Positions 25,644 through 29,963 of a stretch of DNA of 64,000 bases are shown here, piece after piece. Each line of letters starts with the position of its first letter. Within the stretch, counting starts at the first letter, position 1. The translations under genes and the position numbers were made by a program. The stretch lies in assembly GCA_965215265.1 (NCBI GenBank), contig OZ244048.1, positions 4,608,001 through 4,672,000 of the forward strand, written 5' to 3'. A model generated the notes under the pieces. It was given only the letters and a program-made list of their open reading frames with translations. It did not search any database and had not been told where the DNA came from. This DNA comes from Candidatus Poribacteria bacterium. GTDB taxonomy: Bacteria; Poribacteria; WGA-4E; WGA-3G.

Positions 25644-26956
25644 ATGAAGAGAAGAATGTATCCCCCCCTCTATATGTTAAGTGTTTTAGTTCTATTATTA
25701 ATCGCTGGGCTTGTTATGCCGTTTACAAACACCCCTTAACCTGTTCCATTCTATTTTGCATCACGCTTTCGTTACTCATTGCCCCCCTGGCAGTGAGCCA
25801 AAGTCCAGTAGTGAACATTCCGGATGCGACGCTCCGTGCGGAAATCCAGAAGAGCCTCAAACCCGCGGGGGGGGCTATCACCCAGGCAGATATGCTCCGC
25901 TTGACACGCCTCGATTTGAGAAACCTCAATTCAGATGAACGATCAAACGTTAGCAATCTGACAGGACTTGAATTCGCAACCAACTTGGAAGAGCTGGCTC
26001 TCAATGATACGCAAGTGTCGGATATCTCGCCGCTGGCAAACCTCACCAACTTGAGATGGCTGCATCTCAAGCGTACGCAAGTGTCGGATATCTCGCCGCT
26101 GGCAAACCTCACCAACTTGAGATGGCTGCATCTCGAGGATGCGCAAGTGTCGGATATCTCGCCGCTGGCAAACCTCACCAACTTGGAAACGCTGTATCTC
26201 TCGGGAACGCTGTCGGATATCTCGCTGCTGTCAACCTTCACCAACTTGGAACATCTGTCTCTCGGGGATACGCAAGTGTCGGATATCTCGCCGCTGTCAA
26301 GCCTCACCAACTTGGATTGGCTGGATCTCGGTGGTACGCAAGTGTCGGATATCTCACCGCTGTCAAACCTCACCAATTTGGAAACGCTGTATCTCAGGGG
26401 TACGCAAGTGTCGGATATCTCGCCTCTGGCAGGCCTCACCAACTTGAGAAGGCTGGATATCACTAATACGCCAGTGTCGGATATCTCGGCACTGTCAAGC
26501 CTCACCAACTTGACAGTGATAGGTTTTGCGGGTTCGGTGGTGAACATTGCGGATGAGACGGTCCGTGCGAAAATAGAGGAGACACTCAACATCTCCGCGG
26601 GGACGGCTGTGACCTCGGCAGATATGCTCCGCTTGACAAGCCTCGATTTAGGTGGCTCAGACGTTAGCGATCTGACTTTCCTTCAATCTGCAACCAACTT
26701 GGAAACGCTGAATCTTGCGGGTGCGGTGGTAGAAAATATCTCGCCTCTGTCAGAGCTCACTCGTTTGGAAACGCTAGATCTCTCGGGTACGCAAGTGTCG
26801 GATATCTCGCCGCTGTCAAGCCTCACCAACTTGGAAGAGCTGGATCTCGGTGGTACGCAAGTGTCGGATATCTCTCCACTGTCAGAACTCACCAACTTGA
26901 AAAAGTTGGATCTCAGTGATACGGAAGTGTCGGATATCTCAGCCCTGTCAAAGTAA
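25644..26956 (+). CDS. Internalin-like leucine-rich repeat protein; the ATG with RBS (25644) is out of frame at a C7 tract
   Basis: 22-aa LRRs (LTNLE.L.L.GTQVSDISPL) and two N-cap modules; the LRR frame is open from 25643 and includes a hydrophobic signal-like stretch. Confidence 0.85.
25960..26953 (+). repeat. Coding 66-bp tandem repeats (LRR units)
   Basis: Recurrent ACGCAAGTGTCGGATATCTCGCCGCTG...CCTCACCAACTTG. Confidence 0.95.
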
Positions 26957-27152
26957 CATGGAGGTAAAGTCGTGTTGGAATCAGGCGTTTCGGACACCGG
27001 TCGCACCTCTGGCCACTTCACTTCCCTGATGCACGCGTCATCAACCTGCGGCGCGAGAGTGCTTATCGCGATAAACTGGATCTGGAACGGCGTTCGCCAG
27101 TGCAAGCCATCACCGCAGTGAGCTCTAAGTTAAACTAAACTAAACTAAACTA

Positions 27153-27200
27153 ACCAGGGGCAGCCACCCTCACATGGCTGCCCCCGGTTTTTTTTGTTTT
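27153..27200 (+). terminator. Intrinsic terminator, copy 1, preceded by TAAAC repeats
   Basis: CCAGGGGCAGCCA-loop-TGGCTGCCCCCGG followed by a T run. Confidence 0.9.
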
Positions 27201-27252
27201 GGATAGAGAGAAGCGTCGAGGCCGCCTTGAGAAGCGACATCTGGAGACTGCC

Positions 27253-27282
27253 TTGACAAAAAAGGAGAAAGGCTGCTATACT
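27253..27282 (+). promoter_or_regulatory. sigma70 promoter of the nuclease-like gene
   Basis: TTGACA-N18-TATACT with TGn extension. Confidence 0.75.
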
Positions 27283-27315
27283 TTATTATGAGAAGTGGAG
27301 CGTCTAAGCAGATAG

Positions 27316-28416
27316 ATGAGGCAAACTACCGCACCAGAGACATCTAAAGAAACACAAAGCAAACGTAAACTCTGGGACCCTTTCTTCAAAGAGTTCCTCG
27401 CCCGGCTGTTCTCTGGGCTGGGTGCCTCTATCCAGACAGAGATAGAAGTCAACCGGTTGCCGCAGCGTATAGATGCACTCGCTCTCCTCGAAAGTGCCGC
27501 AGCCCGGGCGAGAGTGCGTGCGAATCCGCTGCTCTCTTACTTACGCACGTATAATCTGTTCGAGTTCAAAGGGCAGAACGATCCGTTGAATGAATCGGCG
27601 TATCACCGGATTTGTATGCGTGCGCGTGGTTATCTCGCAGATAAGCAGGTGCCTGCAACCGAGTTAACCCTCACAATAGTGTCGTCTCGGAAGCCGCGGG
27701 CGCTGCTGACACATCCGCCTTTCGGGTTGCCGTGGCAGCAGCTCGCCCCGGGACATTATACCCAGGCAGGTCTGCCGGTGCATCTGTTGGTTTGCAATGA
27801 AGTGGCACTGGTTGAGCCGAATTATTGGTTGCTGCTGTTTGCGTCGTCGCAGAAACAGTTTCGTGCGTTCCTGCGGCGGGTGATAACAGAAGAGAATACG
27901 TTATATTTTGACTCCGCGTTGTATTTGCAGCCGGAAGTCACGGAGGAGGTTTGTGAAATGGAAGGACATCAAGATTTCTTTCAGAGTCGTCTTCGCGAAG
28001 TTGCGACGACTTTAGGTCCGAAGCTGCTGTCGGCGCTGACTACGTCGGATAGATTGGCTCTGTTGAATGCGATGCCCGCGGCAGAACGGGCCGATATATT
28101 GGCGAGTTTACCCGCCGCAGAACGGGCTGATATGTTGGCGAGTTTACCCGCCGCAGAACGGGCTGATATGTTGGCGAGTTTACCCGCCGCAGAACGGGCC
28201 GATATGTTGGCGAGTTTACCCGCCGCAGAACGGGCGGATATGTTGGCGAGTCTACCCGCCGCAGAACGGGCGGATATGTTAGCACGCCTGAGTCCCGATG
28301 AGCGCGTCAAAGGACTCACTCCCGATGAGCGGTTAGCCGGACTTCATTTATCTCCGGCGGTGCGTGCAGAACTCGTGCGGCAGCTGGAGACAGCTGACAA
28401 TGACACCGACATGTAG
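27316..28416 (+). CDS. PD-(D/E)XK nuclease-like protein (Rpn-like) with C-terminal helical repeats
   Basis: D..FK, TEIEV..LPQRID and NLFEFKG (D...ExK); repeats LASLPAAERADM and L.PDERL.GL. Confidence 0.75.
   Translation: MRQTTAPETSKETQSKRKLWDPFFKEFLARLFSGLGASIQTEIEVNRLPQRIDALALLESAAARARVRANPLLSYLRTYNLFEFKGQNDPLNESAYHRICMRARGYLADKQVPATELTLTIVSSRKPRALLTHPPFGLPWQQLAPGHYTQAGLPVHLLVCNEVALVEPNYWLLLFASSQKQFRAFLRRVITEENTLYFDSALYLQPEVTEEVCEMEGHQDFFQSRLREVATTLGPKLLSALTTSDRLALLNAMPAAERADILASLPAAERADMLASLPAAERADMLASLPAAERADMLASLPAAERADMLASLPAAERADMLARLSPDERVKGLTPDERLAGLHLSPAVRAELVRQLETADNDTDM
27958..28416 (+). CDS. Putative internally initiated small protein (RpnS-like)
   Basis: GGAGGAGGT lies 7 nt before an in-frame ATG at the nuclease/C-terminal domain boundary. 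Confidence 0.6.
   Translation: MEGHQDFFQSRLREVATTLGPKLLSALTTSDRLALLNAMPAAERADILASLPAAERADMLASLPAAERADMLASLPAAERADMLASLPAAERADMLASLPAAERADMLARLSPDERVKGLTPDERLAGLHLSPAVRAELVRQLETADNDTDM
28075..28290 (+). repeat. Six 36-bp coding tandem repeats
   Basis: CCCGCCGCAGAACGGGCNGATATGTTGGCGAGTTTA units. Confidence 0.95.
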
Positions 28417-28531
28417 CAGACAACCCGCTTGAAAGGGCATCTGAGTGCAGACGGTAAACTCACAGAACGCTGGGCAACGCTCAAATCGGAAGAATAAACT
28501 CAGTGAGATTTAAACTAAATTAAACTAACCT

Positions 28532-28580
28532 AACCAGGGGCAGCCACGCTCACATGGCTGCCCCTGGTTTTTTTGCTTTG
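28532..28580 (+). terminator. Intrinsic terminator, copy 2
   Basis: ACCAGGGGCAGCCA-loop-TGGCTGCCCCTGGT plus T run; near-identical to the copy at 27153. Confidence 0.9.
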
Positions 28581-28672
28581 GATAGATGGTTCTGCTTTTG
28601 TGCCGGAAAATCCGATGCCCTGGTGCGAGTCAAAACACGCTCCGTTTTCGCACCGGGGCTCCAAAAAAAGGG

Positions 28673-28702
28673 TTGACAACATAAAAGCGAGGCTGCTATA
28701 CT
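28673..28702 (+). promoter_or_regulatory. sigma70 promoter, paralogous to the one at 27253
   Basis: TTGACA-N18-TATACT sharing AGGCTGCTATACT. Confidence 0.75.
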
Positions 28703-28718
28703 AGAAATAAAGAGAGTG

Positions 28719-28832
28719 CTGGTGGCAGCTGACAACCACACCGACATGTAGCAGACGACGCGGTTGAGAGGACATCTGAGTGCGGATGGAAAACTCACCG
28801 AACGGTGGACAACACTCAAGGCGCAAGAGTAA
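28719..28832 (+). repeat. Diverged copy of 28384-28497 (gene end, TAG and 26-codon tail)
   Basis: Ungapped alignment; both copies read ...TDM*QTTRL[KR]GHLSADGKLTERW[AT]TLK[SA][EQ]E*. Confidence 0.92.
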
Positions 28833-28891
28833 GCGTGCGGATGAGTTTGTCTCAACCTAACCTCAATAGGGGACGCTCCTCTCCGGAGCGC

Positions 28892-28990
28892 ACAGTGCTA
28901 AGCAACTTCTCTTTTGATGCCAATGGCGACGCGATTTACGACCCGGTTATCCTCAACGTTAAGCATCGCAAATTTCAGGTCTTCGAGTAG
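28892..28990 (+). pseudogene. Orphan 3' end of a LivJ-like ABC substrate-binding protein gene
   Basis: TVLSNFSFDANGDAIYDPVILNVKHRKFQVFE* with no matching 5' part. Confidence 0.6.
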
Positions 28991-29096
28991 GGTGCTTACG
29001 GGCTACCTCCGCCGTGCCTCCCCGCAGAAGTCTCCCTCAAGATTCGCAGCGACGATGTGCTAACGAAATAGCCCTATTCACAAACACTTCGCAAGT

Positions 29097-29125
29097 TTGA
29101 CACAGTTTCCAATTTATGCTAAAAT
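29097..29125 (+). promoter_or_regulatory. sigma70 promoter of the LamG gene
   Basis: TTGACA-N17-TAAAAT with TGn. Confidence 0.7.
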
Positions 29126-29153
29126 TGTTAATAAACTTAAGGAGGAGTATCAA

Positions 29154-29963
29154 ATGCACGGAAATCTAAAAGGTACCGGTTATAAATTCACATGGCTTAT
29201 CTTAGTCCTTTCAGCCGTGTGTCTGTTCGCTGTCAGTTTGACTCACGCAGTTGAAGAAGAGGACATCCTTGTTTACTACTCGTTTGACAAACTCAATGGG
29301 AAGGTCTTTCCAGATGACTCTGGTAATGGGAACGATGCCGAGCTCGTTGGCAAGGGTTCTCTGGTTGATGGACAATTCAAAAAAGCGGTTCATCTAAGCG
29401 GTGGCGGCATTGTCCAAATGAGCCCCGCCAATGATTTTATTGTACCGATTGGCGAGAACGGCGAGATTACGATGGAGGCCTGGTTTTACCTGAATGAACA
29501 CGCCTCGTACGATGGGATTATCTCTATTGAGGCTGCTGCCGGCGGGTGTTGCGAATTCCGGACTATGGTAGACCCCGATTTTAACCCGTTTTGGGATGCT
29601 GGACACCATGCTGATAAACAGTTGGCAAATTTCCAATTTGAATTGGACGAATGGTACCACTACGTACTGGTTGCAGATGGCAAGGACGGCAAAATCTACG
29701 TCAACGGCGAGTTTATCGGGGAGCAGCCTGAGAATTTTAAGTGGCCGGAGTTCAAAGAGGCGGCGATTTACATCGGGGCCGGGGAAAACCCGACGCTCCA
29801 TAAGGTGGAGGACGCAATTATTGATGAGGTGGTTATCTACGCAAAAGCTTTGACCTTGGCGGAGATTCGCGAATCTATGGAATTGAGCATCCCAGGCGTG
29901 CTGGCTGTGGATGCACGCGATAAGTTGACAACCACTTGGGGAGACCTGAAAGACAGTTTTTAA
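29154..29963 (+). CDS. Secreted LamG-like jellyroll protein with Poribacteria-type C-terminal motif
   Basis: AAGGAGG RBS, signal peptide, YYSFD...D.SGNGND, IYVNG, IDEV.IY.KAL, ending AVDARDKLTTTWGDLK. Confidence 0.92.
   Translation: MHGNLKGTGYKFTWLILVLSAVCLFAVSLTHAVEEEDILVYYSFDKLNGKVFPDDSGNGNDAELVGKGSLVDGQFKKAVHLSGGGIVQMSPANDFIVPIGENGEITMEAWFYLNEHASYDGIISIEAAAGGCCEFRTMVDPDFNPFWDAGHHADKQLANFQFELDEWYHYVLVADGKDGKIYVNGEFIGEQPENFKWPEFKEAAIYIGAGENPTLHKVEDAIIDEVVIYAKALTLAEIRESMELSIPGVLAVDARDKLTTTWGDLKDSF

Follow-up and report, generated by a model that had tools for sequence, protein, structure and literature searches.

Analysis of the 64,000-nucleotide stretch of DNA studied here (the window) and of related genomes indicated that the coding-like sequence behind the UAG of a nuclease gene is very likely a deletion scar, namely the non-functional leftover end of a deleted surface-protein gene. 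The original prediction had read it as a conserved UAG followed by a constrained tail in two copies, arising either by programmed amber readthrough or by site-specific capture of gene ends. The features of the window that bear on this are the following.

25793..26956, + strand: the cassette's first LRR gene, called at 387 aa, with an LRR_4 match; of a type that is tail-less in the intact loci too
26957..27130, + strand: scar left by deletion of the second gene (LRR, lamin-tail, C-terminal domain)
26959, + strand: ribosome site of the second gene, within the scar
26993-27116, + strand: internal piece of the second gene, 90% identity to the intact gene
27152..27199, + strand: terminator-like hairpin 1, the same hairpin as behind intact surface genes
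27253..27282, + strand: sigma-70-like promoter 1, 11/12 consensus matches
27316..28416, + strand: Rpn-like PD-(D/E)XK nuclease gene, 366 aa, with D53, E83 and K85
27942..27960, + strand: internal ribosome site and ATG (Met215), predicted to give a 152-aa RpnS-like C-terminal product
28039..28319, + strand: 36-bp (12-aa) repeats in the C-terminal part of the nuclease, 1 to 11 motif matches among paralogs
28414..28416, + strand: TAG at the deletion junction, probably the TA of the nuclease TAA plus the G of a surface-gene Leu codon
28417..28497, + strand: tail 1, the surface gene's final 26 codons with its stop, differing from the four intact genes at 2 synonymous sites
28532..28579, + strand: terminator-like hairpin 2, folding z = -7.1
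28673..28702, + strand: sigma-70-like promoter 2, of the second tandem unit
28703..28751, + strand: collapsed second nuclease gene, b-type leader and last 11 codons; ribosome site, ATG and body deleted
28752..28832, + strand: tail 2, older allele of the same gene end, 11/12 synonymous variants found outside the TAG class

A variable-number run of the 5-bp units TAAAC/TAACC precedes each terminator (window 27130-27160 and 28510-28531), differs between copies and gives the terminator hairpin a bidirectional look. About 600 bp to the left of the cassette, window 24731-25330 matches places at 1558 kb, 340 kb and 16 kb at 68-81%, and resembles a degraded remnant of some other repeated gene.

Both tails were located where they had been predicted. 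GACATGTAGCAG occurs at both junctions (window 28408 and 28743), and each tail consists of 26 codons plus TAA (28417-28497 and 28752-28832). A recount of the differences between them reproduced the 12 synonymous and 4 non-synonymous changes claimed earlier, 16 sites in total, with 12/16 differences at third codon positions. This synonymous excess (p = 2e-5, tested against 23.5% synonymous sites) indicates that the tails underwent protein-type evolution in this frame at some time. The claimed C-terminal motif is also present, as K-L-x-x-x-W, and ends 99 ORFs of the genome. The reported absence of a signal peptide was borne out as well: hydrophobic stretches resembling a signal are missing from both the nuclease and its internal product (highest 11-residue hydropathy 1.3 and 1.1, respectively, compared with 3.1 for LamG). 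An open stretch of 26 codons past a TAG is common in itself, being found in 34% of 751 long TAG-ended ORFs.

The number of copies had been underestimated. A genome-wide tail search gave 25 matches, one of which (21 nt, chance-like) was discarded, and the 24 retained copies comprise four intact gene ends, ten in-frame TAG copies, six remnants and four stubs. In four intact genes of 900, 902, 1090 and 1412 aa, the same tail is present without a preceding stop as the ordinary last 26 codons; the last 135 residues of these proteins are identical, and the one gene that was scanned features LRR and lamin-tail domains and a hydrophobic N-terminus. Long open frames that end in the C-terminal domain of these proteins occur in 23/24 same-family genomes, with 38 matches in G002 and 7 in the sister genome G001. 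Close homologues of the tail occur only as normal gene ends, a result that the original prediction had itself, in combination with missing readthrough peptides, set against readthrough. The tails of the seven G001 genes with this domain are near-identical to each other, which suggests concerted evolution of the gene end without the nuclease. Among the C-terminal-domain matches listed, the one relative with a flagged TAG was G017, where it proved to be a stop directly after the motif.

Of the six remnants, one follows an LRR gene and the other five follow nuclease paralogs that end in TAA; four are out of frame and two are in frame only behind at least two stops. All four stubs (30 nt) lie behind LRR genes, and five further loci retain only the last 13 nt of the tail. 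Retained pieces measure 13, 30, about 66, 81 or about 180-230 nt, and in the longest remnants the domain is still recognizable in decayed form, interrupted by a nonsense codon and by deletions within it. What is common to every locus is the 3′ edge of the tail with the terminator, rather than the peptide. Among 26 nuclease-type 3′ ends (25 from the search plus copy 2, added by hand), 10 have TAG and 16 have TAA, and the tails behind TAA-ended nucleases are out of frame or past further stops. The capture idea is thus correct insofar as the tail is the end of intact LRR/lamin-tail genes, but site-specific integration is not supported, given the variable piece lengths and cassette ends; variable junctions were what the original prediction had named as speaking against it.

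Loci F and P are intact and run from the LRR gene through the tail-bearing surface gene, the terminator and the promoter to the nuclease, with further nuclease paralogs upstream. In the window, all that is left of the tail-bearing second gene is its ribosome site and an internal stretch of 124 nt. The upstream LRR gene does lack the motif, as had been noted, because the motif-bearing second gene behind it has been deleted in the window; the absence is not conspicuous, since intact loci have the motif on the second gene. DNA of the junction unit was found in 0/40 relatives, a degenerate tail pattern gave 0 matches in metagenome contigs, and neither these contigs nor the genome-wide tail search yielded an intact gene with the copy-2 tail allele.

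In the reading that we propose, the full cassette is the one kept at loci F and P, with an LRR gene, an LRR/lamin-tail surface gene, a terminator, a promoter and an Rpn-like nuclease, and repeated deletions of the surface gene left the variable 3′ lengths seen before the terminator. One such deletion could have fused the nuclease stop to the last 81 nt by way of partial homology, giving the junction present in the window. The TAG unit may then have multiplied in tandem and to distant loci, where recombination with other copies would have produced the mosaicism of the tails by shuffling old coding alleles. The synonymous excess would be a legacy of the time when tail alleles were real gene ends; a donor of the copy-2 allele is presumed.

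The nuclease itself is well modelled (pLDDT 93.8), and the best structural matches are the PD-(D/E)XK nucleases 1y88 (Z 9.2, rmsd 4.3, 144 aligned) and 2vld (Z 9.1, rmsd 3.1, 105 aligned); Foldseek gave nothing for the model at E <= 0.001. Residues D53, E83 and K85 are kept in 17/17 close paralogs, whose frames are all open. An internal GGAG-type site with ATG is present in 17/17 close paralogs and 3/3 distant relatives, and two arrays (loci F and P) contain separate copies of the small gene. The small product has a variable number of repeats, with 1 to 11 matches to a motif whose unit is 12 residues; a MgtE_N match on the nuclease was produced by these repeats and was rejected. The window nuclease did not match the PF04754, PF12784 or TIGR01784 profiles, a genome-wide TIGR01784 search gave no match at the loci of this nuclease, and Pfam, NCBIfam and PADLOC supplied no name for it. 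Among 87 aligned homologues, 8 match TIGR01784 weakly (best 1.9e-8) and 2 match DUF4351, and the ESM Atlas returned unnamed clusters and one DUF4351 cluster at 0.90. The protein would therefore be an Rpn by anatomy, outside PF04754 and TIGR01784 membership, and by analogy most likely works like RpnL/RpnS, as a toxin with an internally started antitoxin. In tandem b-type nuclease arrays (G000:C1:1761900-1763800 and 4101300-4104860), separate small genes keep the internal ribosome site, which matches the published picture of rpnS. Four pieces consisting of the nuclease promoter and a short start-less internal product were also observed (G000:C1, 1720183-1720339, 4202031-4202187, 4366097-4366230 and 437310-437468), two of them seen directly behind an Eco57I-type methylase gene (6 copies).

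The cassette is present at about 20-21 loci in the genome. Nuclease copies are 90-94% identical to that of the window, compared with a G000 versus G001 background of about 78%, and the cassette copies therefore postdate the G000/G001 split. One distant nuclease gene was found in 3/40 relatives, and none of the family in G001. Both flanks could be placed in G001 for fourteen loci (C and F mapped on one side only; E, G, L, R and S were left out), and these comprise eight syntenic insertions and six breakpoints with swapped flanks. The gaps in G001 at the insertion loci are 74 (A), 268 (B), 114 (D), about 0 (H), 1200 (J), 127 (K), 2131 (M) and 7 bp (Q), and the inserts at D, J and K hold other repeated DNA as well. 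The breakpoint loci are W (the window), I, N, O, T and P. At five sites in G001, a left flank from one cassette is joined to a right flank from a different one (W/I, 26 bp; N/F, 130 bp; O/N, 212 bp; I/P, 43 bp; C/W, 2097 bp), and the O-right, T-left and T-right flanks pair with other places in G001. Syntenic insertions together with swapped flanks indicate that copies inserted and then recombined mutually, or arose during rearrangement.

Some copies carry neighbouring DNA of others: B, K and M contain 80, 63 and 8 nt of the left flank of N at 99-100% identity, B also contains 164 nt of the right neighbour of N, and R contains 99 nt of that of A (97-100% identity). Cassette ends vary, and no terminal inverted repeats or target duplication were seen at five junctions judged by eye against a 78%-identical genome, where a short target duplication could escape. 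No integrase was evident among the ORFs listed around cassette loci. Loci M and Q have no intact nuclease; the cassette at Q (G000:C1:4219982-4222787) breaks off on the right within the 5′ portion of a b-type nuclease gene. A separate region, G000:C1:2037756-2039581, is 94% identical to two tandem G001 copies, well above the 78% background, and is possibly a recent transfer. Overall, the nuclease most likely rides duplications that arise by general recombination, and its copies then serve as crossover points for rearrangement.

The expansion is not confined to this cassette. The largest dispersed young gene families of the genome are Rpn-type, with 26 full-length matches for this nuclease family, 24 for the PF04754 type and up to 9 for a third family, so that at least two Rpn-type families besides this one have expanded, and no classical transposase stands at the head of the list of families with at least 4 copies. 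Other genes of the genome match PF04754 above cut-off; several PF04754-type genes follow one another directly after surface genes of FGE/lectin-like or WD40 type, and the third family adjoins restriction-modification genes. Dispersed multi-copy genes include restriction-modification, WD40 and lectin-like genes. Expansions of LRR and WD40 genes are described for Poribacteria in PMC3909097.

This wider pattern invites an extension of the scar reading in which the Rpn-like nuclease itself drives the spread, by nicking near its own gene and thereby initiating variable-end copy-and-insert events that carry surface and restriction-modification genes. The lead of Rpn-type families over classical transposases agrees with this, as does the finding that an Rpn-type stretch is present within 5 kb for 50/118 dispersed multi-copy genes, compared with 311/3119 single-copy genes; however, 68/118 lie away from such stretches, co-copied genes are not independent, and co-location with defence genes is also expected from selection for defence. 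The sister genome G001, which has neither this family nor a match to TIGR01784, is in keeping with a causal role, whereas the surface domain is expanded in genomes that lack this family too (38 matches in G002, 7 in G001). The pieces of the left flank of N in copies B, K and M could be products of such copying, yet loci M and Q lack an intact nuclease. Kingston et al. 2017 (PMC5350276) report that overexpressed RpnA-D promote RecA-independent recombination, but Zhong et al. (10.1101/2023.05.02.539157) found no evidence of autonomous rpn transposition. We consider it unlikely that the nuclease drives the spread of this cassette. The general proposition, that Rpn-type nucleases are engines of variable-end copy-and-insert and that several separate families spread through this one genome in this way with LRR, WD40, lectin-like and restriction-modification genes, taking donor flanks along and setting off rearrangements, appears rather unlikely; the neighbourhood pattern is compatible with nuclease-driven copying and also with hitch-hiking and selection for defence. 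If true, it would revive the disputed mobility of Rpn proteins and provide a route for the expansion of surface-protein families in sponge symbionts.

A second alternative is homology integration, where a circle comprising promoter, nuclease, TAG, tail and terminator enters the 3′ ends of surface genes, so that tail and terminator become doubled. The nuclease at loci F and J does lie between direct repeats of tail and terminator, with an intact gene upstream, and tandem units occur at several loci, but an intact tail upstream is missing at most loci, junction lengths vary, and whole cassettes have moved together, with the LRR promoter region included. A contig joint that leads from 28669 back to 27250 in 3/4 sequencing runs could reflect a circle; the same joint is also expected from tandem units at other loci. 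This mechanism is very unlikely.

The deletion scar would also account for the TAG itself. The junction lies at the identical base in all 10 in-frame TAG copies, which therefore go back to one event. A TAA-type nuclease end and the start of an intact tail match at 11/18 bases in the TAG-CAG register, and a deletion through this homology patch may have created the TAG, with TA from the stop and G from the Leu codon; the chance of an in-frame junction is 1 in 3. The majority of these 10 tails remain open and almost complete, but one has Trp changed to Arg, one has the Trp motif deleted and two have lost the stop. Copy 2 consists of a promoter and a b-type paralog leader joined to the last 11 codons, and it is not translatable from the nuclease start because the ribosome site, ATG and coding body have been deleted. 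Contigs of near-identical strains from four sequencing runs include copy 2 with no differences among the pieces listed. A tail is present in 0/3 distant relatives of the nuclease.

Comparison of old and young variants revealed no sign that the tail has been maintained since. Variants found in at least two tail copies comprise 19 synonymous and 6 non-synonymous changes, whereas those private to one TAG tail comprise 0 synonymous and 7 non-synonymous (Fisher p = 0.0005). Remnants that readthrough could not reach show the same pattern (shared, 17 synonymous and 5 non-synonymous; private, 0 and 9), and the synonymous variants of TAG tails recur in copies out of readthrough's reach. The synonymous bases of copy 2 are likewise found outside the TAG class at 11/12 sites, and at 4/12 synonymous sites the copy-2 base is that of most coding tails in G001, which has no such nuclease. 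The four-gamete test is failed by 94/171 tail site pairs, thus indicating that the tails are mosaics of old alleles. Gene conversion from TAG tails into remnants could also have contributed, the direction of allele exchange not being proven. Two of the seven private tail changes, H8Y and S10N, are present in G001 coding tails and may be old alleles; without both, p = 0.006. In a control, private changes in the nuclease domain were 33 non-synonymous and 19 synonymous (p = 0.052 versus neutral; p = 0.085 versus tails), and because these too are mostly non-synonymous, young changes discriminate poorly. With small numbers and this weak control, no purifying selection on the tail was detected since its placement behind the stop.

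The decoding machinery was sought in a one-contig genome that is 95% complete. TIGR02367 gave 0 matches for PylS (the control was above cut-off in 1/14 genomes), PF01409 gave a single match only, and a CUA anticodon was found in 0/49 ARAGORN tRNA genes, although ARAGORN may miss tRNA-Pyl. RNA structure after the TAG was no better than in shuffles (z 0.33 and -1.01), and an Rfam scan of 26500-29300 gave 0 matches at E <= 5; together these showed no intron, PYLIS-like element or readthrough-stimulating structure. TAG is an ordinary stop in this genome (588/2049 long ORFs), and 22/24 listed PF04754-type genes end in TAG with no such tail detected. UAG followed by C is a comparatively leaky stop context. 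Programmed or exapted amber readthrough, which would equip some of the nuclease, or of its small product, with a sorting-type tail and which finds some encouragement in the leaky TAG-CAG of 10 in-frame copies with mostly open tails, is extremely improbable given a single junction that makes these copies one event, 16/26 ends with TAA and no in-frame tail, motif destruction in 2/10 and stop loss in 2/10 TAG tails, a copy 2 devoid of the nuclease start, the failure to find pylS, a CUA tRNA, RNA structure past the TAG or a signal peptide, and the use of TAG by 22/24 other listed Rpn-family genes without a detected tail.

If the tail is a deletion scar, the case is cautionary: a strong post-stop synonymous excess can come from the end of a deleted gene, shuffled by recombination, and is therefore not evidence of readthrough. 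The surrounding cassette is more important than the flagged tail. It adds an unannotated Rpn-like family with a gene-within-gene layout, and its roughly 20 young copies, together with empty sites in a sister genome, make rpn movement testable by sequence and in the laboratory.

The feature can be compared with four known systems. In pyrrolysine decoding and programmed stop readthrough, coding-like sequence continues in frame past a UAG, and the same arrangement is seen here; unlike in those systems, pylS and a CUA tRNA were not found, stop identity and frame are unconserved among paralogs, and the tail is not maintained. With integrative elements that copy the 3′ end of the gene they target, a passenger gene comes to lie between two copies of that end, as is also the case here, but there is no fixed junction, mostly no intact target, and the whole cassette moves.

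The closest parallel is RpnL/RpnS (COG5464; PF04754, TIGR01784). Zhong et al. (10.1101/2023.05.02.539157) describe a toxin with an internally started antitoxin, and report that rpn genes duplicate in tandem and have ends that vary and lack a target duplication, with autonomous transposition rejected. The cassette shares with RpnL/RpnS the PD-(D/E)XK domain, a predicted internal ribosome site and start, separate small genes downstream, repeats that vary in number, an arrangement in tandem arrays, copy numbers that differ greatly from one relative to the next, variable ends with neither terminal repeats nor a target duplication, and a restriction-modification neighbourhood; its insertions, breakpoints and pieces of donor flank fit published rpn behaviour. 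It differs in that the nuclease fails PF04754 and TIGR01784, the repeats are 12 rather than 4 aa long, the small product has 152 aa, and the copies are dispersed with LRR surface genes and located at rearrangement breakpoints. Outside subscription papers and the supplement of Zhong et al. (Fig. S1B), no description of Rpn copies at breakpoints or of this cassette was found in the literature. The rearranged genome of the cyanobacterium Thermosynechococcus TA-1, which contains rpn arrays according to PMC9403480, likewise combines a lineage-specific Rpn expansion with many synteny breakpoints. Its copies form three tandem arrays and its breakpoints are tied to putative transposase genes, whereas the copies described here are dispersed and mark the breakpoints themselves.
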